DNA of 62,474 bases, filler included, from Kipferlia bialata (Eukaryota), in assembly GCA_003568945.1 (NCBI GenBank). It is 4 parts of 4 records of this genome, joined end to end, with 100 filler letters (N's around TTAATTAATTAA, not from the genome) between each part and the next. Parts side by side here need not be neighbours in the genome. Positions count along the whole stretch, not along the records: positions 15,666 to 31,216 come from BDIP01000689.1; 3 more parts are not named here. The stretch is one strand, 5' to 3'. The translations under genes and the position numbers were made by a program. Shown here in pieces: positions 1 through 26,908 of the stretch; within the stretch, counting starts at the first letter, position 1; every line of letters begins with the position of its first letter. Below the pieces are notes generated by a model. The model saw only the letters and a list, made by a program, of their open reading frames with translations, had not been told where the DNA came from and made no database searches.

Positions 1-21
1 GGGGGGGGGGGGGGGGGGGGG

Positions 22-56
<35 letters not shown>

Positions 57-182
57 GAGGACCAGCACCATATAGAGACAGGATACGTGTATCTACCATA
101 CATAATTCGTAAGCGACTCATTTTCCATTGCATATGGAAGCGTGTATATATGTAGATGACATCGGAGAGTGCCTATCACGTA

Positions 183-632
183 CCCGAATGGCCCGTCGTC
201 ACTGTCTATGGCAAAGCATCTGGTGTCAGTCTGAATACATGGAAGGGACTTCAGCATACTAATGATATCATAACGGGTGAATGATATTGCAAGCTACACA
301 GTATATAGTAGTATCAACCCCACGCACCTGGCAATGGGTGGTATCTCATAGGTCGGGGACGCAGACATGTCAATGTCGCCCACTGCACCCTTGCGCAGGG
401 GACGTGTCTGCAGGTATACAGCCACCAGCAGCGGGAACACTACTCTGAAGAGCAGCAGGCTCTTGTTGGCAAGAAGCTCAATCCGGTGCTTGCTCACTAA
501 GCCATAGAACTGTTCTGCATACAGGTGCTGCTTCTTGGATCTATTGGGCGTAGTCATGGGCCTCCACCATACAGCAGGAGTGGCTAGAAGAGGAGAGAGT
601 GGCTTGACAAGGTCAGTGACCACAGTGTTTGC
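183..632 (-). CDS. Internal exons of an unidentified minus-strand gene (partial, runs off the scaffold edge)
   Basis: Open frame 294-632 behind a TAG acceptor, plus a small CAG...GT-bounded exon at about 183-230. No recognisable motif. Confidence 0.3.
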
Positions 633-1113
633 CTAGTCTGAGAGTGTAGAAAGGGTCTAGAAAGACAGATCTGTCAGATGTGAGCCAATATTGGCGGCTC
701 ATGTGGCCATAGCGACAAACAGAGGCCGGGTCAGATCGGCAGAGACAAGTTAGAGCTTATGCAACAGAGAGTGCCCTGGAAAGGACGGTCAAATATAGGA
801 AAACAAAGCCAAAAAAAATGAACAATACTCACAATCCAAAATACTCATAATACTGGAAGACAATAACACTCAGTAGTATTGAGCAGTCTTGTGATTAGAT
901 GTATACTGCAGTACCGTGACGTCCTGAACCCTTGTCTGGGCACCGTAGACTCAGGTCCGGGGTGTCCTTACAGGCGAAATTAATGCAAACACACATTTCA
1001 CTGTAGATAAATCAGGGTTTGACAAGCTCAAAGGGGATACACGGAACGAACAACAACCTCTTCTTCACTCCACAACAGGGTGACACCTGGAGACTTGGGG
1101 CAGCTATCAGCTA

Positions 1114-4100
1114 ATGTTAGCTCCTTTGGTCCTAGTGGTCGCGCTTGTAGCGTTTTCGCTTCAAAGCAGCGTTGCTAGGCTTGTGTACCCTTCTGAGGTC
1201 ACCCCTTCCTCTGATTGGCCTGTCAAGTGCCTATTCTCGGATGGGATAGAGCCTGCCTTGACCGATGGCGTGTCTGTGTCCCTTCTGGACGCCCAGACAG
1301 AGTCGACAGTCCAGGTGGCGATGGCCACATCGGCCAACCTGTACACCGTCTCCTTCTCCGCTCCGTCTGCTGGCACCTACTTCCTTGAGGCCTCCCTAGA
1401 CGGCGAGGTATGGCCTAAATTATAGTATTAAGACACACTCTTGTCCTTACTCTGGTGTTATCTGCCTTTGCTTCATGACATATGTCTACACTGACCAAAG
1501 ACCCAAAAACACGTATTAGGGGTTTGGTGCTGAGTATCTAAATATCTAAATATAGACCACACATCTATTCTTATACTCAGACACTCCGCTCTGCCACCAC
1601 GATCACCTGCGATGCGGATTCTGCCACCCTAGCCCCTTACTCGGAGCAGCACGTGTCTGCCTCTGCCTCGGTGAAGATATCTGAGGTATGGTATATAAAT
1701 CTCCAATACTCATCCAATGAGTGGATTGTATTTAGGACCTATCTTCTCACTCTTTCTGTCTTTCTATAGATATATGTAGATGTGTCCTACCTTGTCTCTC
1801 ATCCCAGGACAAGGAGTGGCTAGCCCGCATTGCTGACGACGAGAGCCTCGAGATCTTTGCCCACGTCGGTGCCTTCTGGCTCCCCTTCACCTCCTTCACC
1901 ACCGAGCCCGACTACACCGACCTGTCTGGCAGCGCTGTCTCCCTCTCTGCATTCAGCCTGGCCATTGGAGATGTGGCTGGCACTCCCCGCATTGCTGTCG
2001 GCGTCCCCACCCACACCCAGGGCCTCTCTGCCCTGTCCGGTGCATGCATTGTGTGGTACTACACAGGCTGTGGGTGGGTGCATGAGAGGACGTTCCTGGG
2101 CACTGAGGTCGATGCCATGCTCCGCTCTGGGACGGGTCTCTACGTGCAGCTCGGCTACCAGGTCTTCATCGACCAGGGTCTGCTCTATGCCAGGGCATAC
2201 ACACTGTCCGACTTCTACGATGTGCCAGGCATTCTCTCCGCCTCCTTCAACTCCGACCTCGGTGTCTGGAACGACCTGGCTCAGATAGAGGGGTGTGAGG
2301 ATATCTTCACCAGCCCTTACATGCGCCTGGCGTCTCAGACTAACTACGACGTGGCTGATGGAGTAGTGGTTGCACTCGAGACTGGTGGTTTGTCGTACGC
2401 AGATATGGAGGTGTGTGCCGGTGGTGAACAGACCAGAAAGACCATCGACCTGCCGAAATATGACTACAGCTCCTTCACCTACTTTGGGATCAGAGATGAG
2501 ATCTGGGATTCCTTGGCAACCTCCATCTCTCTCGGTGTAGTAGATGGCCAGACTCTCCTGGCCGTGTCCTCCCCCTATGCCGCTGGACCCGACCACACCA
2601 TCCTCAGGGGGAGAGTGCGCATCTATGACTTGTCGCGCGGAGGTTGGTCTCCCATTGAGGTCCTGCCCAACACCCAGCCCGACGATGTCATTCTGTTTGG
2701 CTCTTATATCCACCTCGAGGCTGACACCCTTGTCGCTGGGTACGGTGCCATTCCCTCCTCTGTGGGTGAGACTCTGCTAGGGCAGCTGGGTGTTGTGGAT
2801 GGCGGAGTGGGCACAGCGTCTGTCTTCTTCATGGACGCCTATGAGTACCCTGACGTTGTGTATGGTGACGGTTGGGCCCAATACTGGATCCCCTACTCCT
2901 TCTCCTCCTATGGTGATGGGCTGGCGGTGGTGTCCGTTCCGGAGGAGACCCCCACTCTCCCCGCCGAGCTCAGTGTCAATGTGCTCTCCACTGAGCCATT
3001 CTATGAGTGTGAGTATCCCCTTGTGACCTTCGAGCTCCTCCAGGATGGTGTGGTATACACAGACTACGACCTCAGCAACGCCATGGTGGTTGGTGACATT
3101 AGTTACTATAACTGGGACAGCAACCAGGAGTACAACCCCCCCGTGACCTATGACACAGCCTCTGGTGTCTACACCCTGGAAGTGACGCACTACTCCTGTA
3201 GTGACACCTCCTGCCACGCATTCCTTTTCCCTTTCCAGTTCAAGATTGACATTGGGCCCAGGCTTGATGCCCGTGCCAACCCTGACTCGTCCCACCTCCT
3301 GGCCCCTCTCTACAAGGAGCCCGGCACCCACGTACTAGTCAAGGCTCTCTGGGAGAATATGTGTGGTAATGAAGTGACCACTGGTACCACCTCCTTCGAG
3401 CTCAGATCCACCACCTCTGACTACGCACTGAGTGCCTCTGTCACTGAGGCCCCCTACTACACCCAGTTTGATGGGTCTGACCTCCCCGCCGATACCTACA
3501 CGATCACAGCCACCTTCGACAGTGATGGATACGACTTTGACCCCCTCACATCCACTGTCACCGTCTCAGACGACCTCGACAACATCCAGCTGCTGAGGGG
3601 GAAGCTGACGTCGGCTCTCATTGTGGGCATGAACTCAGGCCTCATCGACATATCCTTCGCGCAAATGCAGGACATGCCTAGTATCCTGACTGAGATCTGG
3701 GACTTCATCGTCAGTGCCGAGGACAGTGGGGCAGGTGCTCTATTCCTGGAGGATCTCCTGACTCAGTTTGCCGCCCTCCACGGCCTTGACCTCGACGACC
3801 TGGTGTCCAGCCTTGAGAACCTCGAGGACGCCGATGTGAGCATGCGTCTAGGCGGCGCCCTTGGCCTTCTCAATGGGGTGGAGTACATGGACTACATGGG
3901 TGTGTTCAACACCTCTGGCAACGACCTCCTGGACTCTGCCTTCGACAGTGACTACTACCTGCCCTACCAGGTGGAGGTGTCCTTCGACGACATGGGCCGC
4001 AAGAGCTACAGCCTAGTCGCTGTTGTCGATGGGGAGGGAGAGCCTCTGTCCGACTACTACACCTGGTACTCCCAGGGTGGCCTCTCTGCCATGCTGGAGT

Positions 4101-7100
4101 ACCTCGACACCGACGTGTCCTTCTGGGACGGCCTCCTAGGCATCCTGACATATGTGGATGATATGGCAGGGGCTGAGGGGGTCATTGTCGACACCTATGC
4201 TGCCTACCTAGACCAGTTCCGGTCCATGCCTGAGGACTACACGGTGGGGTCTGCCTTCAACCAGCTGGTGGATAGACTGGATGAGGACGGAGAGGAGGGG
4301 CAGATGTCTGTTGGCGACATTGTGGACGGGGTGTCTGACCTCATTGGACACCTTGCCCAGGACACCGACCTGTTTGATGGTATCAACCACATTCTGGCCT
4401 TCATCGACACCCTGGCCGACACCCACATGTCTCAGGACTACACCGACTTCATGGCGGACACTGACACCTCTCTCAGGGACTTCCTGGCAGAGCTGGTGGG
4501 TGCACAGGACATGGACAATCTCGACTCCTTCCTCGCCTGGCTCAGTGGCATTGCCTCTGCAGACGGGACTGTTCTCGAGGGTATCCAGAGCACTCTGGAG
4601 CTGGTAAGAGACCTTGCCGGTATTACCAGGACCTCATCTCTCGAGGAAGCCCTCGACTATGTGAACACCCTCTTCGCAGACCTGGACGGAGACAGGGAAT
4701 ACCTTGTACGGTCCTACCTGGGGGACCTAGTCGATGAGTATGACACTGAGAATGCATCTCACTATGGTGATGATCTGGCCACCGTCGAGAGCTTCATCAA
4801 CGCCCTTGCAGCTAATGAGGAGCTGGAGCAGGACCTTGTCGCTCTGCTCTCCTTCATAGACGAGATGGCTGGCACCTCTCTCTCTGGGTACTATGCCAAT
4901 ATGCAGACATGGCTGGATGACCTGGAGCCTACCTACACCCTTGCCGATGCACTGCAGGACCTGCTGACTCAGGTGGACGAGGTTGAGGGCACAGACATCC
5001 TGGCCGCATATAACGAGGCCAGGGGGGTGTTGGATGATGTGGCTGATGCTGATACACTCCTCAACGGCCTCGTGGTGATTGTCAATGCATATGACCTCAC
5101 TGCCTCATTCCCGGAGGTGGCGTACCTCCAGACCGTGACTGACTTCATCAACGGTCTTGATGATACCTACACGGTGGAGACCGGCCTTGATGCTCTGCTT
5201 GACTACATCGATAAGGACGAGGAGATGGGCCTGGTCTCCATCAAGGAGTCTGTCCTCGCCTTCATCTCCGACATGACGGACCCCTCCTTCCAGAATAGGG
5301 TGGACACAGTCCTCACCATAGTCGACACATACACAGGCCTCGATCTCACAGGGCAGTTTGACTCCCTTGTGACCTACCTCGACACCTTGCCCGAGGATGC
5401 CACCGTAGCAGACTGCGTGCACGACCTGCTCGACTGGGTGGAGACCACCTCCGGCATGCCCCTTGCTGACGTGTGGGACCAGGTGGTTGCACTGGTGGAT
5501 GGTATGCCTGCCGACACCACCCTGGCAGACGGCATAGGACAGGTGCTGGACTATGTCGACGAGACATTCGAGACCAGCCTCGGAGAGTACTTTGGCGTGG
5601 TGGCTGACTGGCTGGCAGACCTGTCCCCCGAGTACACGATCCACGACGCCGTGTATGATGTGGCTCAGTATGTACAGGATAACTACAGTGTGATGCTTGT
5701 CACCTACTTCACCTCCGTCTCCACCTTCGTCGACAACATGACCTCCGCCCAGACTGTGTTTGACACCATCGAGAACCTCATGTATGCCATGGGCCCCTAC
5801 CTCTCGGAGGATATGGCGGCCCAGGTAGAGGCTGTGGCTGATGACCTCAGCGCCTTCCTCTCTGGCCTGACCAGCGAGTACACGCTCTCTGAGGCCCTCG
5901 ACGACCTCCTTGTCTATATTGACGACCTCCAGTTCGGGACGGACCTGGCGGCTTCCTACCAGAGTGTCAAGGACGTGGCCAATGAGTTCCTGGCAGACGC
6001 TTCCCTTCTCGAGGGCCTCCAGACCCTCCTCTCTGTCCTCTCCGATGAGGGAGTAGACGTCTCAGATGTCTCTGACTACCTCAACGCATGGGTTGACTTT
6101 GTTGAGGGACTCGATGAGGCATACACTGTCGGAGTGTACATCTCTGACTCTCTGGAGGCTCTCGATGAGGCATACGACATGACTGTCTCCCTCAGTGAGT
6201 CCTACGATGCCATGCTCACCTTCCTAGAGGCAATGTCCGTACAGGACATCTCGCTAGTGGGGGAGGCCGAGGCCGTGCTCAGTCTGATGGATGGCTCCCT
6301 TGGTTCCCTCATCCTCTACTACACAGACAACGGTGACGACGACTATGTGCCCTTCACCATGTCGGACCTCGTGGCTGACATCGACTCTGCCCTGGCCGTC
6401 ATCACAGACATCTACACAGTGCAGGATGCCGTCAACGACGTCTTTGACCTCATCGGTGAGGATCTTGGTGCCTCTGAGGAGATCGATGCTGTGCGCACTG
6501 ATCTGCAGACCCTCCTGGCCGGTCTAGCTACCGACGAGGACTTCATGGCCGGCCTCACCGATCTTGCCATCTTCTTTGACGAGATTGCAGGTGACACCAC
6601 TGTGGAGGACCTTCTCCAGAGCTTCGAGGACCTTGGGGCTGATTACACGGTGCTGGATGCCGTGGAGGCTCTCCTTGCAGACGTTGACAACGAGTACGAT
6701 ACCATGGCCGGCGATGTGTTCGATGACCTTCTGGCCCTGATCAAGTCCTTGGCTGAGGCCTCCACCTTCATGGATGGTATCGACGTCATCTGTGAGTGCA
6801 TCGACAAGTACACAGAGGTGGACTCTACCAGCTACCTCACCGAGATTGAGGACTGGATCAACGGCTTTGCCGCTGACTACACCCTAGGCGATGCCCTCGA
6901 GGATCTGGCAGCCGAGCTAGACCTCGACGAGGGCACGTCCCTGGTGGAGTACCTCGACGACACCATCGCCTACCTGCAGGCACTCAACGAGGACTACTAC
7001 CTCCCCGACGAGCTCATGTCTCTGCTCACCAACCTCAGCGACTGGAGCAGCGTGCTTGTCAACGACGTCATCGCCCAGGCCATGCAGTGGATACAGGACG

Positions 7101-10100
7101 AGGTGCTGCAGGGATTCACCTTCGCTGACCTCCTTGCCCCTGTCAACGACTGGGTGCAGGAGACAGGCGCCATCACCGTCTTCTCCATCCGTGACGATGT
7201 CGTTGACTACATCACCACCGACCTCGGGTTCACATTCTCTGCGGTCTTCGGAGATATCCAGCAGCGCCTCGATAGCTTCAATGCCATGCTGGTAGAGGAC
7301 ATCCTAGACGAGGCCCAGCAGTCTATCCGCGAGGCCACCGGCGTCAACCTCCCAGAGGCCTTCTCTGGCCTCGACGCCTCTCTCTCCACTGTGCTTGATA
7401 CCCCTGTCGAGGACTACCTCAGCCAGTTCCAGGACTCTGTCACAGAGGCCCTTGGATGGGACTATGCCAGTGTGATGTCTGCGGTCAGTGACTACTTCAC
7501 TGACGTGGGCGGGCTCTCTCTCCTGGACATCATGCAGCAGGTGGACGCCGAGTTCACTGACCTGGCTGGTGCCACCATCTCTGAGGTCTTCAACAACCTC
7601 CAGACCACCCTGTCTGAGTATGGGGCAGAGACTGTGCAGGGCGTCATTGACAGGGTGGTGGAGTCGATAGAGGACAACACAGGCATCACGCTGCCAGCCA
7701 CCATGGACGACCTAGTCACCATCGTCACCTCCTACACAGACGACCTGGCCTCTGACGTCATAGCCGATGTGCAACAGATAGTGGACGACGCCTTCAACGG
7801 GGTGGACCCTGTGCAGCAGCTGTTCTCTGCAATCGATGGATGGCTGGAGCCCGTGCTGGAGACACCTGTGCTGGACTACGTGAACACACTCCGCTCAGCT
7901 GTGACAGATGAGACGGGTACCTACGCGGATATCATGGCAACTGTCATGGAGAGTGTTGAGGGTATTGAGGAGTACTCCGTCCAGGACCTCGTCGACTCTG
8001 TGCGTGGCAGCATCTCCCAGGTCATTGACGACCTGGACATGGATCCCACGCTCCTGGAGGTCATCACCCAGGTGGCAGAGGGTATCAACGCGTACCTCGA
8101 CACCCCCCTCCTCGACATATCCGACGGCATATCCCAGGCATTCAAGGACGCGGTCGGGTATGACTTTGTAGACGGGGCCTCTCAGCTCTGGACGTACCTC
8201 GACGACACCCTCGCCTCCCCTGCCAGTTCCATAGCACAGGACATCGAGGACAGGATCACTCAGGCAGTCGGGGACAGCTTCTCATTCGCAGACATCTTCT
8301 CTACAGTGGATACCACACTTGGCGAGTGGGGGGCAATCAACCTCTACGACACCATGGTCCGGTACACAGAGAGCATCAACAGTGCCACCACAGACACCGA
8401 CCTCGTTGCTGTGTCCACTCTGCTGAGAGGGGGTAAGGTGTATGCCCAGATGCAGGGAGACGACGCATCCACAGCTGTCTCAGTCGGTGTTGCCCTGGGT
8501 GGCACTGACTGGCACACATCGGTCCTACTCTCCATCGACGAAGGGACAACCTACCTCTACTTCCCTACCACCGCCCCCCATGACGATTTCAGCACCGTAA
8601 CCTGTGCCTCTCCCAACCTGCTTGTGGGCGACACCCTCGAGGTTGAGGTTGTGCCCCTGACCTATGCCGGAACACCCCAGACAGGGGACGTTGAGGTGCT
8701 GGTCTCAGTGATGAGGGACAGCACCATGATAGAGTCCAACGTGCAACTGACAGGCCAGGACGGGGTGTACACCCAGAGTCTGGTGGTGGACACTGAGGGA
8801 GTGTACACCGTCACTGCCCGTGTTGCTGGCTCAGTCCTCTCCAACACAGCCACCGTGTACGTGGGCAAGGTCATGGTGGAGTATGGTGGCCGTGAGTTCT
8901 ACCTGTCCGAGAGTCTGTCTGTCGTCGAGGGTCTCCTCGACCACTATGCCGGAGGCGACACCCTCACTGGCGACATCACTCTGGTCACTGCCTCTGGCTC
9001 TACAGTGACAGCAGCCCTCCCAGTCACTGCTGCCTGGGACATGGGTCAGCAGCAGGAATCTGTCTTCCAGAACCCCAAGCACGCAGTGTCTGTCACCGTG
9101 CCATCCGCTGCTGGGTACCACTCACTCGACTTCTATGTGGATGGCCAGCTCCTGACATCCTCCACCACCACTCTGACTGTGGCTGTAGATGCCTATGGGG
9201 TAGCCTTTGTCTCTGACTACGCCATGCCCGAGGGTCTGGGTCAGACATGCGGCAGTTCCGACGTCTCCTTCACCCTCGAGGACTATGATATGTCCACCCT
9301 ATCGGCTGACCTCTCTGCGTCACTCTCCGCAGGATGGGACGGCGCCTCAGACCTCTCCCCCGTCTACTCTGACGTCGGCACCTACACCCTGACGGTCCAG
9401 TCCCCCACCGCTGCTGGTACCCACTACCTGGGAGTACAGGTGGATGGGGTGGTGGTCGACACCCGTTCAGTCACCACCAGCCAGGTCACATCTGCAGGGC
9501 AGAGCAGTGTCTCTGTCCCAGCAGATGTTGTCATCGGCAGGACCGCCTCTGTCTCTGTCACGGTGGCAGATGCATGTGGCAGTGTCATGCCTGCTGGCAG
9601 TGTGGTCACTGTCAGTGTGGGGTATGGAGAGTCCCTCCCCTCCCCCGTGTCTGGTGTGACTGAGACCTCCCCAGGTGTATTCACAGCTGTCACGGACACC
9701 CTGGATATGGAAGGCGACTACACCGTGTCAGCGACCGCAGACGGCCTGGCCCTGCCCTCCCAGACCATCACAGTGCACCCCCTCCCTGTCTCTGCCCCCA
9801 CCTCCTCTCTCTTCCTATGGGACGAGGATCACGACGGCCTGTTCCTGTCCTTCCCCAGCATCACTCTGTCAGGTGACCTCACCTCCCCCCTCGCATGCTC
9901 AGCCCTTCTCGACATTGTGACAGCTGACCGTACCTTCGGCGATGCTCTCTGCTCTGTCGAGAGTGACGGTGTCACAGTGCTGGTGGAGGACAGCTCTGAC
10001 TTCAAGCTCCACTCCGGCGACTCCATCCAGTTCGTCAGTGAAGCACCTCTGCTACCCTATGAGGTGATTGCTGGCGAGACTGTACTTGGACTGCCCATGG

Positions 10101-12508
10101 TCCTGGACGGCACCTTCACTGTAGACTACTCTGCCAGGGATATGCCGACTGCCAGGGTCGATCCCAACGATAGCAACATCAAGCTGCCCCTCCTGCCTTG
10201 TGGGTCTCTGTCCCTCGACGTCCATGTCAACAAGGAGGCCAAGTGTGACCCTCTGGTACAGTGGAGCACAGACGGCACCGTCTACACACCCATCGACACC
10301 CTTGTGATTGAACTAGGCGACAGCATGGGCACGACCAGCACTGTCTACTACACGGTCGAGACCTGCTTCAGCCTTGTCTCTGGCCAGACCACATTCACCG
10401 TCCGTGACCCCGTGGCCCCCATGTACACCCTCCCCAGCAGTGCTCTCGTCAGCCTCGGGGACTCTATCACCTTCGACCCCTCCGTCTCTCTGGGCTGCTA
10501 CTGGGCTGCCCGGGAGGAGGACCTGACCATGGAGTGGACCGTCCCCCCCATGCTGCAGGACTACACCCTTGAGACAGACACGGTGCTCGAGGTGGACGCT
10601 GACAGTACCATCACTCAGGGCTCCTACGACCTTGTCTTCTCTCTCTCTGGCGAGGGCATCAGCGACGAGACCACGGTGACTCTTGTTGTTGACGGAGATG
10701 TGTCTCTGTCTGTCCTCACCGACTGGCCCGATGTGGACAGCCCAGGCTACCTGGGAGCCAACACCGACCTCCTTGTATCCCTAGTCTCTAGCGATGAGAC
10801 CGCTGTCGACATGTCTGCCGCCCTGTGGGAGCTGGACTCCTCTGACACCCACACCACTGCCACAGGGGCAAGTGCCTCCTTCGCAGACGTTGCCCCAGGC
10901 ACATACGAGCTGACTGTGACGGTCAAGAAGGTGTCTACCCAGGCGGACCTGTCCCTGGCCTCTGTGGTCACTGTGCTCGAGGCCCCTACCATTAGCACAT
11001 ACACCCTGACTGGCAGTGAGTTTGATCAGTCGGAGGAGGTGGCACTCACCACCACCGGTGCCCTCAACGCCTTTGGGGTCTCCATCGACCTCAACCTGTG
11101 GGCATATGACACAGAGACAGGCGAGAACACCGTGCCCTCTAGGGTTGTTGACTCCTCCGCAGAGCTCTACATACCCCAGAGCGGAGAGTTTGACCTGTAC
11201 CTTGGGGCCTGTGACCGTTTCCGTGGCTGCACCGAGGAGAGTGTGGGCGTTGTGACCATCAAGCTGTTGCCCCCCCCTGCGGCAGACGAGGACGTGACCG
11301 AGGCCCCCATTGAGGAGCAGATGGCCATGGTGGCTAGTCTGGGTGCCGGAGAGCAGGACGGGGCATGGGCTGCCCTGGACGAGGAGACGCGTGTCGACCT
11401 TGCAGCCACGCTCACCGCCTCTATCCTGGGCACTGAGGACGACGACGAGGAGGAGGAGGAGGAGGAGCCCGACTTCACAGATGTGATGCTGGTGGTTGGT
11501 ATGGGCAACGAGCTGACGCTTGATGAGGACACCTACGACGACATAGCCAACGTGGTGGCTGACGTCATCCAGCCTCTGAACCAGGACCAGGCCTCGTCTC
11601 TCGTGGCACTAGCAGACAATGTACAGGACCCAGAGACCAGCAAGGACCTGGGCCTCGTGATCGGGCAGCAGCTCGCAGCTGGTCTGGAGAGAGACAGCGG
11701 GATGTCTGGCCCCAACGACAGTGCCACGTCTATTATGACAGTGCTGAAGACTAGTGACCCTGTGGAGATTGAGAGCCGGGAGTTCTCAATCATATCTGAC
11801 AGCGGTGCCGTCGACATGACCAGCGGCCTGGGAGGCCTGTCCATGCCAAAGTGCTCTCTCAGGGATGGCCTTGTTGGCTGCAACTCTGGGTACAAGACCC
11901 TTGTGGCAGAGACTGACACTGCAATGGACACTGAGGACCCTGCCGAGACCATCGTGTCCAGGCGTGTCTCTGTGAAGGGCAGCGTGTTCCTAGGAGTCAC
12001 CGAGGACACCTCTGCTGTGCTTGACGACGCCTACACCCTGACCCTCGGCCTGCTGACAGGTGCCGCAGACGTGTTGGCAGACCTCTTCTGTGTCTTTGAC
12101 GGAGAGGACACTGCCGCTAGTGGGTGCTCAGCTGCCCTGTCTTCCGACGGCACCGCCATTGAGTGTACCTGCACCACCCTGGGAACCATTGCAGCCTACT
12201 CCTCTATCCCTGAGGCCCCTGCTGACACCTTCAACTGGGTGCCTGTTGCCCTGGGAGGCGCTGGAGTGCTGTCCCTCCTTGGAGTCGGGACATGCTGCTG
12301 TGTGCGCCGCAAGAGTAACAAGAAGGCTAAGGCTAAGGCCCAGATGAAGAAGCAGGATGACGCCCTCAACCCCCTAGCAGGTGTTCCCGTACCTGTCGCT
12401 GTGGTACCCGTAGGAGTGGTGGAGAGAGTGCCCCTTCCCATGGCTGTGCCTGCCGGTGGGGAGCAGGTCAATGTAGTCGTGCCAGTGGCTCCTGTCGGGA
12501 GATTCTGA
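1114..12508 (+). CDS. Giant (~3700 aa) single-pass type I membrane protein: signal peptide, FG-GAP-like repeats, long acidic alpha-helical repeat region, Ig/filamin-like and PKD/REJ-like beta domains, GPS-like motif, TM, short tail
   Basis: Exons 1114-1407, 1581-1685 and 1808-12508 splice in frame through GT-AG introns. Hydrophobic N-terminus MLAPLVLVVALVAFSLQSSVA. Motifs IAVGVP..SGACIVWY and LAVSSPY..RGRVRIYDL. C-terminal CVFD..SGC..ECTCTTLGTIAAY, then TM WVPVALGGAGVLSLLGVGTCCCV and basic RRKSNKKAKAK. Domain names are motif-level inference. Confidence 0.85.
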
Positions 12509-19159: not shown

Positions 19160-20194
19160 TTACTCGCTCTTCTTGCTCTTCTTGGACTTCTTCTTCTCCT
19201 TCTTCTCCTTCTTCTCCTTCTTCTCCTTCTTGACTGGGGGTTAGAGAGAGTGAAACAGAGTATTAGAGAGAGAGTATGCGTACCGCGCTTGGCCTCCTTC
19301 TCTGGGGCCTCGGCTCCCTCCTCAGTCTCAACCTCTCTGGAGCGCTTCTTCTTCTTCTTCTTCTTCTCTCCGTCCTGGGGTTAGATCCAAAAGAGACAAG
19401 TGTGGCACGTAGAGTGTATGTAAAAGTAGGCGTGTTGTGATGCATACCTCGGACTTGTCCTTCTTGCTCTTCTTGGACTTCTTCTTGGACTTCTTCTCTG
19501 GGGGTGAGGGGGTATACACGAAATACATAGACTATATGTAGAGAGAGACATGGACGTACCCTCGCCCTCCTCGATCACGGTCTCCTCAACCACAGTCTCC
19601 TCAACCACAGTCTCCTCAGCCTCCATGGCAACGTCCTCACCGGCAAAGTACTTGCCCTCGCGGGTCACCTGGTTCTGCTCGTTGTAGGCCTGGGGGTGAG
19701 GAATGGAAATATGGTACCATACTCGAAAGAGAGAGAGAGAGAGAGAGTGATGTGCGTACCGTGATGTTGTGGTCGATGGAAGACCTGATCTCCCTGGCCA
19801 CAGTGTTGCCCTCGAGCTCCCTCACCCTCTTCTCGAGCTTGGTGGCAACGTCCTCGGCCACAGTGATGCCCTAGCGGGTTAGAGATACATGTACATAGGG
19901 TGTGCATGCATATATGTGTATGTATATATATATGTAGGTACCTTGTCCACGCTGAATGCATCGACACGGGCACAGATGGCAGCACAGGCACCAAGGGCAC
20001 GGGCAAGCTTACCCTGAAGGTCAGAGACAACACACTTCGAGAGGGACATAAAGAGACAGAGGTACGACCCTGACTTTACATATGTACCTTGTTGTTGGGT
20101 GCGCACTGTCCGAGCATCTTGGCGTGGAAGATGATTCCATACTTCGGGGTGGGGGCCTTCTCCTGCAGGGCACGGAACAGAGCCTGGGGGTAAG

Positions 20195-20230
<36 letters not shown>

Positions 20231-20695
20231 GAGAGAGAATGAAGACACGCACCTTCTCGGCTCCGATGATCTGGATGGTGGATCCGGCGTACTTGGCAAG
20301 GGTGAGGAGGGAGCCGGCGTGGCCGATGAGACGGGCGGTCACGACCTAGGGGTGAGTATATATGTATATATATAGTATATACATATGTACATACATACAC
20401 ACACCTCTCCGATGATGGCTGCCAGGTTGGGTGACACAGCCCTGACCCTGTTGAGGAGGTACTCGTGGAGGTCAGCGTGTGCAGAGCCAAGGGCCAGCAC
20501 CTGCTCGGCAACCTCACCGATACTGGGGGGTCAGACGGGTGTAATAGATAGAGACATAGATAGATAGATACCAGGGTCAGAGGGGTGTAATAGATATATA
20601 TAGAAGTATATTGTGTGTGTGTGTGAAGGTACATACCGGGCCATATCCTCCTCAGTGATAGCGGCACCGATGGAGGCGTTTCCAGACTCGCAGAC
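19160..20695 (-). CDS. NOP58: Nucleolar box C/D snoRNP protein Nop58 (Nop56/58 family), 3' half; 5' part lies in the gap
   Basis: [62 protein letters not shown] (Nop domain) and a KKE-repeat tail ending at TAA 19160-19162. The GQ and LL residues favour Nop58 over Nop56. Confidence 0.88.
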
Positions 20696-21687
20696 CTATG
20701 CGTGAGAGAATGAACCATGAAGGAGTAGAGAGAGAGAGGGTAGTGTCGGAGAGAGGGTAGTGTCGGAGAGTGGAGGGTGTGTGTGTGTGGGGGGGGGGGG
20801 GGGGGGGGGGTTTTTGGATGTGGGGTNNNNNNNNNNNNNNNNNNNNNNNNNNNNNNNNNNNNNNNNNNNNNNNNNNNNNNNNNNNNNNNNNNNNNNNNNN
20901 NNNNNNNNNNNNNNNNNNNNNNNNNNNNNNNNNNNNNNNNNNNNNNNNNNNNNNNNNNNNNNNNNNNNNNNNNNNNNNNNNNNNNNNNNNNNNNNNNNNN
21001 NNNNNNNNNNNNNNNNNNNNNNNNNNNNNNNNNNNNNNNNNNNNNNNNNNNNNNNNNNNNNNNNNNNNNNNNNNNNNNNNNNNNNNNNNNNNNNNNNNNN
21101 NNNNNNNNNNNNNNNNNNNNNNNNNNNNNNNNNNNNNNNNNNNNNNNNNNNNNNNNNNNNNNNNNNNNNNNNNNNNNNNNNNNNNNNNNNNNNNNNNNNN
21201 NNNNNNNNNNNNNNNNNNNNNNNNNNNNNNNNNNNNNNNNNNNNNNNNNNNNNNNNNNNNNNNNNNNNNNNNNNNNNNNNNNNNNNNNNNNNNNNNNNNN
21301 NNNNNNNNNNNNNNNNNNNNNNNNNNNNNNNNNNNNNNNNNNNNNNNNNNNNNNNNNNNNNNNNNNNNNNNNNNNNNNNNNNNNNNNNNNNNNNNNNNNN
21401 NNNNNNNNNNNNNNNNNNNNNNNNNNNNNNNNNNNNNNNNNNNNNNNNNNNNNNNNNNNNNNNNNNNNNNNNNNNNNNNNNNNNNNNNNNNNNNNNNNNN
21501 NNNNNNNNNNNNNNNNNNNNNNNNNNNNNNNNNNNNNNNNNNNNNNNNNNNNNNNNNNNNNNNNNNNNNNNNNNNNNNNNNNNNNNNNNTTTGTTTTGCC
21601 CCTTTTCCCCCCCCCCCCCCCCCCCCCCCCCCAACCTATTTGGTGGTATATCCGTATCCTTTTGTTTCTGCTGTCACTCACGCCCAG

Positions 21688-24600
21688 ACAAGGTCCAGAA
21701 GACACTCTCCCTCAGCGACACCCAGTTTGTTTCCACTCTCTTTGGCAAGGAGTGGCAGCTTGCCCTCAAGGCCCCGCCCCTCCCTCCCAAGCCCACCATC
21801 CACGCCGTGTCCAAGAACCACCCGCTCTACACCAACACCCTCCAGTGCCTGCCCGACGACATGAAGAGCCGGGTCTTTGCTGTACGCACTGGCACTGTCC
21901 CCTCCCGCAAGGGTCTCTACCTCAAGGCCAAGCAGAACCTGGGTGTGGGTGAGCGTGTCCCCATCTACCATGGTACTGCAGAGCCCTGGCGTGCCACCCA
22001 GATCGCACTCAACGGCTTCGACCTCAACCTCAAGCTCAACGGCAGGGCACTCGGGGACGGTGTCTACACGACCTCCGACCCCAACACCGCCAACGGGTAT
22101 GCCAGGGGGAGCGGCTCCATCGTTGTGATGCGGGGCCTCCTCTCCACCGACATCACCCCGGCAAGCAGCGACGTCATCTTCGTCTACACCAAGCCCGAGC
22201 AGCTGTTGTGTGAGGCCATTGTGGACTTCTCAGCCGATACCTCTGGCAGAGAGGCTGCCGCTGATGCCGCCGCTGACGAGGAGGAGGCTGAGGCCCGGGA
22301 GCTTGCTGCGCTGAAGCGTGACATGAAGCAGAGAGAGGCCAGTCACAGGGTCACGATGACTAGGGACTGGAGGCAGATGCTGCAGGGGTATCTCGACAGA
22401 CTGCAGGGGTGGCAGAGGCAGATACCAAAGGGTAACAAGGGGGCAGCGGAGAGGGAGATGCTGGCCCACAAGGTGGAGCTGGAGCAGAAGCAGTTCGAGA
22501 GCCGCCTCCCCATCTACCTCCACAAGGGTGAGGTCGTGCAGCAGCTGAGGGCGAGAGATGTCCTCTTTGTGAGTGCACCCACTGGTACTGGCAAGAGTAC
22601 CCAGCTGCCTCAGTACATAGTGGACGAGGTGTTCCCCAACGACACTCGCCGTGTTGCTGTGCTGCAGCCAAAGCGCGTCAACTGCACCTCTCTCGCTGCC
22701 AGGGTGGCCTCTGAGCGTGGCGGTGTTGTGGGTGAGGAGGTGGGGTACAGCATGGGAGGCGGTGCCGTCTGTACGAGTGAGCAGACCCGCATTGAGTTCA
22801 TCACCCACGGTCTCTTTGCCTGCATGTCCCTCAACGGAGACCTCAGGGCCAAGTACTGTGCTGTCGTGCTGGACGAGGCCCACGAGCGGACCATTGAGGT
22901 CGACATGTCTCTTGCCCTGATCAGACGTGCCCTCAGGGGCGAGGGTCCACGGAAGGACACTTCCAAGGAGCTGTCCTTCAAGGTAGTTGTCTGCAGTGCC
23001 ACTCTGAGTGAGGACACAGTCGACACCCTCAAGGAGTACGTCGACCCCGACTGCACCAGGTCTGCTGTTGTGGAGCTGCCCAGCCACTCCTTCCCTGTCC
23101 ACGTCATGTACAGAGACCAGGCTCTGCTGCAGCAGGACGACAGCACCACCACCCAGGGCAACGTCATGACGTCTGCCGCAGTGGACACCGCCCTCCAGCT
23201 CTTCAAGCAGACAGACCGAGGCAACATCCTGGTGTTCCTGCCAGGTATATAGTATTGGTGTCTTCCACAGTCTCTCTCTCATGTTGTACTAATATTGTTA
23301 AAGAGCGGTGTTCAAATTGTCTCTAACGTCAGGCCACCACCACCTGTCCCTGGCCTTCGACTGCTTCCATCGCTACCTAGAGGGCGAGGCCGGTCACAGT
23401 ATCAACACTCTAGAGCACTCCCTCAGGTTCAACACTGAGAAGAAGGAGACGGTGGGAGTCTTCAAGTTCCACGGACGGCTCTCTGCTACGCAGCGCAACA
23501 TTGTCCTCAACTACGCGGACCACGGCTACGACCGCATCATCGTGTTTGCCACCATCGTTGCCGAGACTGGTATCACCATCCCTGACTGCCGCTACGTTGT
23601 GGACTCTGGACTCGAGCGGACTGTGCGGTGGAACGCAGAGCTGGGCTGCAACGAGATGCGCACGGCCCTAGCCTCCCGCTCCTCCCTCGAGCAGCGCAAG
23701 GGCCGCGCAGGCCGTACTGCATCCGGTGTATGTGTCCGCCTCTACTCCAAGGAGATGTTCGAGGAGGCGCAGCAGGCCCACCCCCCTGGCGTCACTGAGA
23801 AGAACGTCCAGACGGTTCTGCTGCGCCTACTGCACGAGCAGGAGAAGGGCAACGATATCAGGATGCCGGAGGAGATCCCCCAGAGCGCCAGGGAGGAGGC
23901 GACTGGTGTACTGCAGGAGCTAGGTGCTGTGTCGGAGACAGGGGAGGTTACGAGAGAGGGCAAGTTCATGCTCGACCTCGGCGTCGACTTCCGCCTTGCC
24001 TCCTTCCTCCTAGCCTGTGACAACCTAGGGTGTCTGACCAGTGGCAGCATCATCGTTGCCATGGCTACCACCACCGGCACTCTCACCATGCTACCCCTGA
24101 AGCCTGACTCCCGAAACAAGTCCCCGCTCAAGCCACCCCTGGAGGAGTACTTTGACTGCAGTGGCGACCACGTGACCCTGCTCAACATCTTCAAGGGATA
24201 CAAGGCGGCCAAGAGCAAGACCTCCTGGTGCATCGATCACGATGTGCCCCATGACACCATGAAGACAGTCCAGGCCAACCTCGATTCCATTCTGGAGCGA
24301 CTTTCTTCAAGGTATGCATATGTACTATACTCATGTACATATGTCTGCTACTGCTACGTGACAGTGTATGTTCTTGTTGGTCGCACTCCTAACATCCAGG
24401 GGCTGCAGTCTAAAGGATGATCCCGAGAAGACCGCTGAGCACGGTGGCACCCACAGCTGCATCCTGCGCTCCCTCTGCGTTGGGTTCTTCGACCACATTG
24501 GTGTTCTCAAGATCCCCTTCCAGCCTGAGAGTGGCGTCACCCGCCTGCTACCTGCTGCCCAGGTCGGGTCCAAGTGCGAGGCCCTCAACCAGTTCGTGCA

Positions 24601-26171
24601 GGACGTTGGCCCCCGCTGTGCCCAGGCCTCAGCGGTACCCGAGGCCGACGAGGTGCTGGTCCTCGTGGACAGACGCTCCGCCCTGCACAACGCACAGGAG
24701 GCCGCCGACAGGGATGACGCTGACCCTGGCGATGGTAGCATGGTTGTCTTCCACTCCCAGATGATGGTCGACAGTGCCAGGTACCCCAAGGTCCAGCTGG
24801 TCTCCTACATCTCGAGCGAGGACCTCTCTGACATATCACCCGGTATGCGCAAGGAGATTGAGAGGAGCAAGCGCAAGTTCTCTTGTGTTGTGCGGAAGGT
24901 TCCTCTCTCCAAGAAGCAGTGGGATGTGATTCGCAGCCACATGAGTGTGTTCATGTCCCAGCTGAGACGGATGCACCCCAACGCTGGTATCAGCGTCGAT
25001 ACCTCCGACCACCCTAGACGCACTCTAGTGGTGTCAGCCCCAGAGAGTTCCATCGACCACATCATGGATAAGGTAATTCCATTGTGCATTGCATGCATCC
25101 TTACTGTGTGTGTAAGACATCATATCATGTCACTAATGTCAGGTGGAACGCAAGCTAGAGACTGCGGAGACTGAGGATGTGCTGGTAGAGCTGCCTGAGG
25201 GCATGCTGTGCAAGCACATCTCCTCCAAGATGAAGAAGCTCAAGGCAGATCTGGAGGCCCTACTCCAGGAGTCTGACTGCTTGGGTCCCTTCAACGTCTG
25301 CCTGGACTTCAACGCCAACGCCATCAAGATCACTGCCGGAGGAGACGCCAAGTGCCAGCTGGCTCTGCTGATTGGCCGTGTCCACAGCTTCCTTGCCACG
25401 CACTCCAACAGCCACGTCACTCTATCCATGACGGCCGAGGGCAGTGAGGGCCGGGCTATCGTGACAAACCCTCGGTACCGCCAGCTTGCAACCTCAGCCA
25501 CCCCCCAGATAGTGCGAGGGGGCCGCAACAACATGATGCTGTTACTCTCGCACCACCTGATCTGGCAGTGCAAGTGCACAGTGTATGGCGGCATGGTGAG
25601 GGACTGGGTGATCAGGAACGAGGCCGCCAACGACATTGACTGTCTCCTCCCCAACATGAGCATGATGGTCTCAGTCAAGGGCACTATTGAGAGATTTGCA
25701 TCAAGGCTGGGCCTGCACAAGGTGGAGGAGAGGCAGCAGCCAAACAGCTACATGATCAGGTTCGGCGGCACCAGCGGCAAGGATATCCGGGTGGAGCTGG
25801 TCGACCCCCTGCTCCCCACTGCCGCCCCCCACTGCGACTGCTCTGCTGGCAATGTCTGTGTCAACGCCAAGGGCGTCATGGCCAAGAAAGCCCATGCCGG
25901 TGGGAACACAGTCACCCTCGCCGAGTGCATCACGCACATCAAGAAGAAGCAGTTTGTGTGCTTCCTCGACTGGAACGCCCCTCAGAACGCAGGGTCTCTG
26001 CTGGGTAGGGTCAAGGACAAGTACCTCGACCGTGGCTGGTCCCTGTTGAACCAGCTGCCCACTGCTCAGATGCGGCAGCTGCAGAGCCAGGCTGAGTACT
26101 CAAACTGGCATAGAAGGGGGCAGCTGCAGTTTGATCCCAAGTACACAGGCCTCGACTGGTCCAAGATCTAG
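21688..26171 (+). CDS. Fusion protein (>1400 aa, 5' end in gap): PARP-like ADP-ribosyltransferase + DEAH/RHA RNA helicase + possible KH-like region + C-terminal Pol-beta-fold nucleotidyltransferase
   Basis: Exons 21688-23244, 23333-24311, 24400-25072 and 25143-26171 splice in frame. ART motifs: YHGT, LGDGVY, A.GY, IFVY..EQLLCEAIVDF. Helicase motifs: PTGTGKSTQLPQY, QPKRV, LDEAHER, SAT, LVFLPG, AETGITIP, QRKGRAGR, DHVTLLNIF. NTase motifs: VYGGMVRDW..NDIDC..VELVD..CDCSAGN. Confidence 0.9.
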
Positions 26172-26520
26172 TCCCAGTGCCAATTGATACATTAGTCAAT
26201 AGAGTATTACTATACACAATTTGGATGAGTTTTATATCTCAATCACATAACTGATATATATCATTATTGTGTGCTACTCCATTTACTGTTTGATGTGTCT
26301 ATGACACTTGTCTATGACGTGATTGAAGACTGGTTCAGGTGCAGACATCATCAGTGCTCTATATCATTATTCAAAGTCAGCACGCATACCTGCCACTAGT
26401 GTTAATGCACTTTGGATCTGGGGGCCCACATCTCTGGCCAGTCAAGACAGAGCATGCTAATGGTCCTGAATCTCCAGGCGTTGTCATTCTCAGGTTCGGA
26501 CGAAACAGCACAATTAATAA

Positions 26521-26705
26521 TCAGAATGTCCAGGTGCCCGTTGGCAGCACTATTAGCACTACAGAGCCGAGGGTGTTGCCAGGTAATGCTGAGGCTGCAA
26601 ACTTAGTGCAGGCACTGACGATGAGGGAGCAGGCCTTGTCGACGGGGAATCCGAATATACCGGTGGATATGCAGGGTATGGCGATGGAGGCTATGCACCA
26701 CAAAC
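26521..26705 (-). CDS. Terminal exon of a Macro-domain (ADP-ribose binding/hydrolase) protein; remainder lies in the gap
   Basis: After a CCCCAG acceptor the frame reads ..SIAIPCISTGIFGFPVDKACSLIVSACTKF..LGSVVLIVL..stop, matching the Macro C-terminal signature SIAFPxISTG(I/V)(Y/F)G(Y/F)P, helix, last strand. Confidence 0.82.
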
Positions 26706-26719
26706 CTGGGGTCAGTGCA

Positions 26720-26757
<38 letters not shown>

Positions 26758-26908
26758 AAAAAATTTATTTTNNNNNNNNNNNNNNNNNNNNNNNNNNNNN
26801 NNNNNNNNNNNNNNNNNNNNNNNNNNNNNNNNNNNNNNNNNNNNNNNNNNNNNNNNNNTTTCTTTCTCTCTTTCTCTCTCCCTCCCCCCCCCCCCCCCCG
26901 ACCCCCAG

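Follow-up and report, generated by a model that had tools for sequence, protein, structure and literature searches.

Can one protein chain combine a mono-ADP-ribosyltransferase (ART), an RNA helicase and a nucleotidyltransferase (NTase), and if so, what might such a protein do? This question is raised by a locus of the eukaryote Kipferlia bialata (positions 21688-26171, plus strand) that lies in the window, i.e., the whole stretch of 62,474 nucleotides that was analyzed (four parts of assembly GCA_003568945.1 joined by filler; the locus falls in the part from BDIP01000689.1). An initial annotation, made from the sequence alone, had read here four exons splicing in frame into one open reading frame (ORF) with three catalytic modules. 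The locus product is K. bialata KIPB_005499 (P0001, 1,413 aa), with exon D letter-identical. As detailed below, KIPB_005499 is a real spliced gene carrying an ART fold, an RNA helicase and an NTase fold in a single chain, and the protein extends beyond the model initially drawn.

A single spliced transcript joins the three modules

Exons A (21688-23244), B (23333-24311), C (24400-25072) and D (25143-26171) are separated by introns of 88, 88 and 70 nt (23245-23332, 24312-24399 and 25073-25142), all three with GT..AG ends. Joining the exons yields a single stop-free frame of 1,411 codons that closes with a stop codon at 26169-26171; the two alternative frames of the joined exons hold 42-43 stops. 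Every motif on which the three-enzyme proposal had been built was located: YHGT (21966), GDGVY (22053) and IFVY (22176) for the ART, GTGKST (22584), DEAH (22872), SAT (22995) and QRKGRAGR (23692) for the helicase, and YGGMVRD (25584), DID (25632) and ELVD (25794) for the NTase, with folds and conservation in agreement.

Contigs of sequencing run X1 skip all three introns. That X1 is RNA is a tool's guess, its contigs skip the introns exactly, and it perhaps derives from the sample that was the source of the genome; the locus is expressed in this run. Two other runs, X2 and X3, gave no contigs over the locus, which is no evidence either way. Since exons 2-3-4 (B to D) are bridged by a single 2,768-nt contig (23330-26255, ending downstream of the stop codon), the NTase exon belongs to the helicase transcript and is not a separate gene. 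The intron 1 junction is covered by a single contig with 26 letters on its shorter side, and an unspliced 144-nt contig is present beside it. Position 21688 does not mark the start of the gene; it opens an exon that follows a CAG acceptor. The 3' end of the upstream intron (21590-21687, plus strand), with its poly-C tract and CAG, can be read in the sequence, and an RNA contig (contig 1) departs from the genome at 21686. The 5' end of the gene is cut by a 763-N assembly gap at 20827-21589.

A macrodomain, and likely a Nudix domain, precede the visible exons

Contig 1 (2,646 nt) covers 21686-23245 and extends 1,086 nt further 5', in an extension that is mostly absent from the genomic stretch compared. 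Within it lie 101 nt that match, with 5 differences, the macrodomain motif ASIAIPCISTGIFGFP found at 26591-26691 on the minus strand; this piece is in frame with exon A, at a distance of exactly 885 nt (295 codons) upstream of it. A macrodomain motif is thus part of the gene's transcript, of which the C-terminal motif region is visible. In relatives, the distance from the Macro motif to the ART is 271-348 residues when a Nudix domain lies between them (6 proteins) and 138 residues when none does (1 protein). Because the K. bialata spacing fits the former, a Nudix domain likely lies between Macro and ART here as well. The upstream exons, which carry Macro and probably also Nudix, are located in or beyond the gap. 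The initial list of modules stands for the ART, the DEAH helicase and the NTase, and is to be extended by an N-terminal macrodomain (from RNA), a likely Nudix domain and two KH-like domains.

Among relatives, all 7 macro-bearing proteins keep HxVGP and the Gly-rich loop (of the MacroD-type motifs NAAN, HxVGP and S(T/S/C)GxF/YGFP), and the Nudix box RE[FL]xEE is found in 18 of the 20 that bear a Nudix domain. For the Nudix domain of an Aphanomyces relative, the nearest Atlas clusters were Nucleocytoviricota Nudix proteins (score 0.96; 160-169 shared features, the tool's guide being 170); we treat Atlas results here and below as leads only.

Two candidates for the missing 5' part were rejected. 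The database start, 'MH', uses an ATG at 20698 that is the complement of the splice acceptor of a minus-strand Nop-domain gene, so the N-terminus of KIPB_005499 is mis-annotated at 20698-20701. The macro exon visible in the window (26521-26706) is not the missing exon either: it has 5 differences in 101 nt, other flanks and an exact contig of its own.

The ART domain is of a predicted mono-ART type

The PARP-type domain (21789-22241, plus strand) occupies the first part of exon A, ahead of a helical linker, RecA1 and the start of RecA2. Its model (predicted local distance difference test, pLDDT, 89.7; 23-row alignment) matched PARP13, PARP10 and PARP15 with Z scores of 18.0, 17.4 and 17.2, respectively (root-mean-square deviation, rmsd, 2.1-2.3; 143-147 residues aligned). 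Foldseek ranked PARP10 (E 6e-8) and PARP12 first, and the top folds were all PARP10/12/13/14/15. Residues H96, G97, Y128 and Y139 are invariant in 22/22 rows. The His codon lies at 21969, the Tyr codon at 22065 and a Val/Ile at the third triad site near 22173-22176, for which two registers are possible, no structural alignment at residue level having fixed the exact one. At neither of the two positions, 164 or 165, does any of the 22 rows carry the catalytic Glu, i.e., the domain lacks an H-Y-E triad. PDB sequence searches with the ART returned nothing useful, and an exact-pattern scan of viral contigs, which has limited reach, gave 0/148 pattern matches for it.

By its modeled PARP fold and its NAD+-binding His and Tyr, the domain falls in the PARP/ARTD superfamily, and the lack of Glu marks it as the predicted mono-ART type, as had been suggested from the motifs. 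It resembles the interferon-induced mono-ART PARPs (PARP14, PARP10 and PARP12/13; clade 3 in passages of Citarelli et al., PMC2964712), which combine H-Y-(I/V) with a Glu-less PARP fold; for K. bialata, the likeness to clade 3 is one of fold ranking.

A DEAH helicase core is followed by KH-like domains

The DEAH helicase assignment was borne out as well. The DEAH/RHA core with HA2 (22503-24511, plus strand) runs across introns 1 and 2: exon B encodes RecA2 motifs V and VI and HA2. Pfam DEAD and Helicase_C scored above cut-off and HA2_N below it. Alignment to a solved DEAH helicase is continuous over residues 274-884 (E 1e-62) and takes in HA2, whose winged helix and ratchet follow RecA2, and motifs I, II (DEAH), III (SAT), V and VI (QRxGRAGR) are all intact. 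The closest PDB helicases are Prp2/16/22/43-type DEAH proteins, which, like HrpA, share this RecA1-RecA2-HA2 core.

Exon C would encode a likely OB-fold region, ahead of the first of two KH-like domains (24887-25409, plus strand, across intron 3). At E<=0.1, OB_NTP_bind matched 2 and KH_1 matched 4 of the 23 members of the alignment; OB_NTP_bind was not found in the K. bialata protein. In the second KH-like domain, which begins exon D, GxxG occurs in 8 of 10 aligned rows, the exceptions being the two Kipferlia rows (HISSKMK). Plant and invertebrate DEAH11/12-type KH-RBR helicases have a similar core followed by KH-like domains. Unlike these, the K. bialata protein showed no detected RBR and has four other enzyme domains attached.

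The NTase is a truncated class II-type domain with viral look-alikes

The C-terminal domain (25467-26168, plus strand) had been assigned to class II NTases of the CCA/poly(A) type, an assignment that holds in part. Over head and neck, 173 residues of its model (pLDDT 94.7, 61 rows) aligned with class II tRNA nucleotidyltransferases (Z 9.9, rmsd 3.9). TENT5 matched with a Z score of 7.7, and cGLR1 and CdnE with 5.5 and 5.9, the last two over 93-97 residues only. GGxxRD (25587), DxD (25632), a third carboxylate (Glu, 25794), a conserved Asn and R..K..RGW mark the domain; across 111 rows (of 141 proteins, those passing a coverage filter) the GG, RD, DxD, third carboxylate and Asn are near-invariant. 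In these features the domain is like class II CCA- and A-adding enzymes, bacterial-type poly(A) polymerase and TENT5/FAM46. Unlike them, it lacks RRD (present in 1/111 rows; K. bialata has PHCDCSAGN there) and the [ED]DxxR template (4/111 rows, not in the K. bialata protein, where the conserved Arg is kept). It also has no CCA-type body and tail, as the protein ends 234 residues past the start of the NTase and matches stop at chain residue ~216-239. Identity to these enzymes is 10-16%, with an rmsd of about 4 Å. The domain is thus not a CCA/poly(A) polymerase proper.

The best structural matches overall were uncharacterized giant-virus proteins (E 1e-7, TMq up to 0.59, versus 0.45 for the best PDB chain), and the nearest Atlas clusters were of the phage Gad2 type (language-model score 0.95; 174-177 shared features), one of them 97% Gad2. 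In passages of 10.1101/2023.05.01.538930, PMC13670838, PMC13728456 and 10.64898/2026.09.15.751885, Gad2 is a predicted phage NTase that overcomes Gabija by an unknown route. The NTase thus resembles, in its features and structure matches, phage Gad2 (PF26128) and giant-virus NTases (of megavirus, tupanvirus and a fadolivirus RING fusion). Unlike these, it is cellular, encoded by an intron-containing eukaryotic gene and fused to a helicase and an ART; being no phage gene, it falls outside the definition of Gad2 as a phage-encoded Gabija inhibitor.

No Pfam model used covers the NTase family above cut-off. A Pfam scan of 61 members did not return the Gad2 model; PolyA_pol was the most frequent match, sub-threshold (23/61 members at E<=1), and PHROG nucleotidyltransferase 1614 matched 18/61 at E<=0.01. 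PDB sequence searches with the NTase gave nothing useful. A giant-virus contig ORF (L001, 6690-9275) matched the family hidden Markov model (HMM). Exact-pattern scans, whose reach is limited, found only stand-alone NTase-like ORFs in viral contigs, 0/16 pattern matches for one Nudix domain there, and no NTase relative among 59 pattern matches in prokaryote genomes. As separate observations, a giant-virus ORF (L002, 7591-8724) encodes a related NTase with a weak RING match, and a 125-kb viral contig (L011) holds two class II NTase genes (2-5605 and 9902-11134), one of them long, with PolyA_pol and HD.

The same domain order recurs in distant protists

Word-based homolog searches returned KIPB_005499 itself or nothing, and HMMER recovered the family: with the NTase as query, 1.84 billion representatives yielded 140 proteins at E<=0.001. 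Domains were counted with HMMs built on the family, for chosen domains. Twenty-five proteins, including that of K. bialata, have the order ART-RecA1-RecA2-NTase (type A), so that the architecture is repeated in 24 other proteins; the ART is partial or weak in P0058 and P0112. Type A proteins add Nudix in 20/25, Macro in 7/25 and both in 6/25. A second order, RecA1-RecA2-ART-WWE-WWE-NTase (type B), occurs in 7 proteins (P0016, P0031, P0034, P0040, P0053, P0074 and P0091) and at locus L005; its ART also appears Glu-less, and one related protein, P0117, has an IBR match. The NTase stands alone in 80 hits, many of them probably fragments, and no domain was called in 2. Another family domain was called in 58 hits: 54 of them have an ART, WWE, Macro or Nudix (one, P0102, of 108 aa, is doubtful), whereas the sequences of the remaining 4 start within the helicase. 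These architectures are borne out by Pfam scans of 66 hits, which add a few partners such as kinase-PARP and PARG. The NTase catalytic set is intact in 25/25 type A and 6/7 type B rows.

An organism was named for 13 of 30 relatives looked up (of 140), the other 17 being environmental. Type A hosts are Carpediemonas, Eukaryota sp. TZLM1-RC and TZLM3-RCL (both of which we take to be of metamonad affinity), Choanoeca, Aphanomyces stellatus and Chlorochromonas; type B hosts are A. stellatus, Lagenidium, Chilomastix, Pedospumella and Paulinella. The named carriers thus span metamonads, a choanoflagellate, oomycetes, chrysophytes and Paulinella. Two loci of another eukaryote, L004 and L007, are identical except for a 159-nt insert absent from L004, consistent with a spliced transcript encoding a putative Nudix-ART-DEAH-NTase protein. 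A quick tree of type A (23 rows) was deep and poorly resolved, with a highest identity of 36%, and does not separate descent from transfer. Within K. bialata, two further clusters (three locus tags) carry the NTase. Separately, another X1 contig has a 65-nt match at 26056-26120, outside which its sequence is unrelated; it may stem from one more expressed paralog.

Full-text literature searches found no description of an ART-helicase-NTase architecture, in line with the initial impression that it was not a described family, although subscription papers, supplements and the Aravind-group ART/RNA-repair surveys could still list it. The searched passages of PMC2964712 contain no occurrence of helicase, nucleotidyltransferase or nudix, and PMC9503650 gave no passage on the architecture for the terms searched. 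A close likeness is to PARP14, in which, according to passages of PMC13224862 (see also PMC10499325), KH domains, a hydrolytic macrodomain and an ART are united in one protein; both thus hold a writer, a macrodomain eraser and KH-type RNA-binding domains in a single chain. Unlike in the macro-PARPs, the Kipferlia-type ART is internal rather than C-terminal, a DEAH helicase, Nudix and NTase are added, and type A lacks RRM, CCCH or WWE. The order Macro-Nudix-ART-DEAH-KH-NTase also departs from that of PARP14/9/15, where a C-terminal ART follows (RRM-)KH-Macro(-WWE). By its nearest clusters, those of Nucleocytoviricota, the Nudix domain of the Aphanomyces protein is comparable to the decapping enzymes of nucleocytoplasmic large DNA viruses (NCLDV) such as Mimivirus L375 and vaccinia D9/D10, with no viral subfamily singled out. 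In overall design, the K. bialata protein is akin to a cross between an antiviral macro-PARP and a unit of helicase and tailing enzyme, and on the features tested it belongs to neither the PARP14 type, the CCA/poly(A) polymerases nor Gad2.

A possible RNA-directed antiviral enzyme

What might such a protein do? We tentatively propose that the locus is the 3' part of a gene for a single-chain, RNA-directed and likely antiviral enzyme that would decap, reversibly ADP-ribosylate and tail RNA, a reading to which we give a probability of roughly 0.45. The helicase and KH domains would load onto single-stranded or foreign RNA, from which the Nudix domain could take off the 5' cap or an ADP-ribose. 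The Glu-less ART would mono-ADP-ribosylate an exposed phosphate end or an RNA-bound protein, and the macrodomain might reverse this mark. The NTase, which lacks a body and tail with which to bind RNA itself, may extend a 3'-OH that the helicase and KH domains hold in place, and the net outcome would be RNA whose translation is blocked or which is marked for decay.

This reading, like the antiviral or RNA-surveillance role suggested at the outset, draws on several lines of indirect evidence. The modules share one frame and one transcript, the models support their folds, and their catalytic residues are kept across a family with <=36% identity to the K. bialata protein. ART, DEAH and NTase co-occur in two orders (25 and 7 of 140 hits), and the NTase is repeatedly linked to ART, WWE, Macro or Nudix (54/58). 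In passages of PMC6582358, PARP10, PARP11 and PARP15 attach ADP-ribose to RNA at phosphorylated ends, a modification that macrodomains reverse. The nearest look-alikes of the NTase and of a relative's Nudix are viral, and NCLDV Nudix enzymes decap mRNA and may act on ADP-ribose too (PMC8478210 and passages of PMC9503650). Finally, the carriers are scattered over distant protists, and K. bialata has extra NTase paralogs. Other findings weigh against the proposal. The substrate of Gad2 is unknown, and a Gad2-like NTase therefore need not act on RNA; the NTase has no ribose-selecting RRD motif; the KH GxxG loop is lost in Kipferlia; and the Kipferlia Nudix is deduced from spacing alone, its sequence lying within the gap. 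Macro and Nudix are not obligatory in type A (7/25 and 20/25, some rows being fragments), and some NTase relatives have, by Pfam, RRM, LRR, RING, kinase or DDE partners that fall outside the chosen-domain HMM count. The Atlas taxa comprise few members and show no transfer, and an old housekeeping role would also fit the strong motif conservation and the deep tree, which a single metamonad origin could explain.

Could the helicase instead be a sensor that gates signaling or protein modification? The Gad2-like NTase would then nucleotidylate a protein, ADP-ribose/NAD+ or a small nucleotide, giving a messenger or a hybrid ADP-ribose-nucleotide mark that Macro and Nudix switch off. We regard this as possible but unlikely. 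The NTase resembles proteins of the phage Gad2 type and of giant viruses that stand alone (one giant-virus relative has a RING), RRD and EDxxR are nearly absent (1/111 and 4/111), a tandem WWE directly precedes the NTase in type B, and the NTase occurs beside ADP-ribose modules with no helicase detected, as in kinase-PARP-NTase, PARP-NTase-UIM and PARG-WWE-NTase proteins. Some of these helicase-less hits may, however, be fragments; in type A it is KH domains that immediately precede the NTase, and among solved structures the NTase matches enzymes of RNA 3' ends best (CCA/A-adding, Z 9.9; TENT5, 7.7), ahead of cGLR (5.5) and CdnE (5.9). Somewhat less probable again is housekeeping RNA end-repair or surveillance that is not directed at viruses, in which helicase and NTase would resemble TRAMP, a helicase-plus-tailing unit, joined by end-cleaning hydrolases. 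The retention of all catalytic motifs in deeply diverged members, the proximity of the helicase to Prp2/16/22/43-type proteins in the PDB and expression in run X1 suit such a role. The variable N-terminus (0-2 Macro, optional Nudix), the shuffled second order, the Kipferlia paralogs and the viral look-alikes are nevertheless more typical of conflict systems, and none of the 13 named relatives (30 looked up) is from animals, plants or fungi.

It is improbable that the protein is mainly a helicase scaffold whose ART or NTase is a binding module. PARP13, which is naturally inactive, shares the top rank among the fold matches through its C-terminal domain (in a variant structure), and the third triad site lacks Glu; set against this, H96, G97, Y128 and Y139 are invariant (22/22 rows) and the NTase carboxylates are all kept (25/25 type A rows). 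That separate genes were joined by splicing guesswork or misassembly is by now hardly credible and already largely refuted: the assembly is a draft with gaps on either side, the database start codon is spurious and intron 1 is bridged by one short-sided contig, but an RNA-type contig crosses exons 2-4, and the order recurs in 24 other proteins and in an independent spliced contig. Returning to the RNA-directed antiviral enzyme, a bolder form of it, which we consider doubtful, would make the family an ancient protist antiviral system. In it, the ART and the Gad2/giant-virus-type NTase would be chemically coupled, the NTase elongating ADP-ribose or acting together with it to place a new hybrid mark or messenger on viral RNA captured by the helicase; Macro and a giant-virus-type decapping Nudix would reset it, and two of the modules would have been exchanged with viruses.

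Neighboring genes in the window

A convergent gene (26389-26771, minus strand) follows KIPB_005499. Its last exon (26521-26706, minus strand) encodes the C-terminal piece of a macrodomain (Pfam Macro, E 8.5e-6), of which 101 nt are 95% like the macro part of the KIPB_005499 transcript. It is a partial paralogous copy and not part of KIPB_005499, which suggests a recent partial duplication. Upstream, a Nop56/58-type small nucleolar ribonucleoprotein gene (about 19380-20700, minus strand; Pfam Nop, E 3e-15) has a 5' part that enters the gap at 20827-21589. Elsewhere in the window, an open frame runs through 3,590 codons without an intron (1736-12508, plus strand), in a genome that is rich in introns. 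It gave weak Ig-like Pfam hints (Invasin_D3 and YtkA, below cut-off), and near its C-terminus basic residues come after a hydrophobic segment; it looks like a giant surface membrane protein.

Implications

The antiviral immunity of microbial eukaryotes is poorly known, and a passage of PMC6582358 calls the role of RNA ADP-ribosylation unknown. The family described here unites a predicted writer, eraser, pyrophosphatase, RNA motor and tailing-type enzyme; with these five predicted activities in one chain, a single recombinant protein and five point mutants would suffice to examine their coupling. The family also gives a cellular context to NTases whose viral look-alikes, Gad2 and many giant-virus proteins, are without a known substrate.

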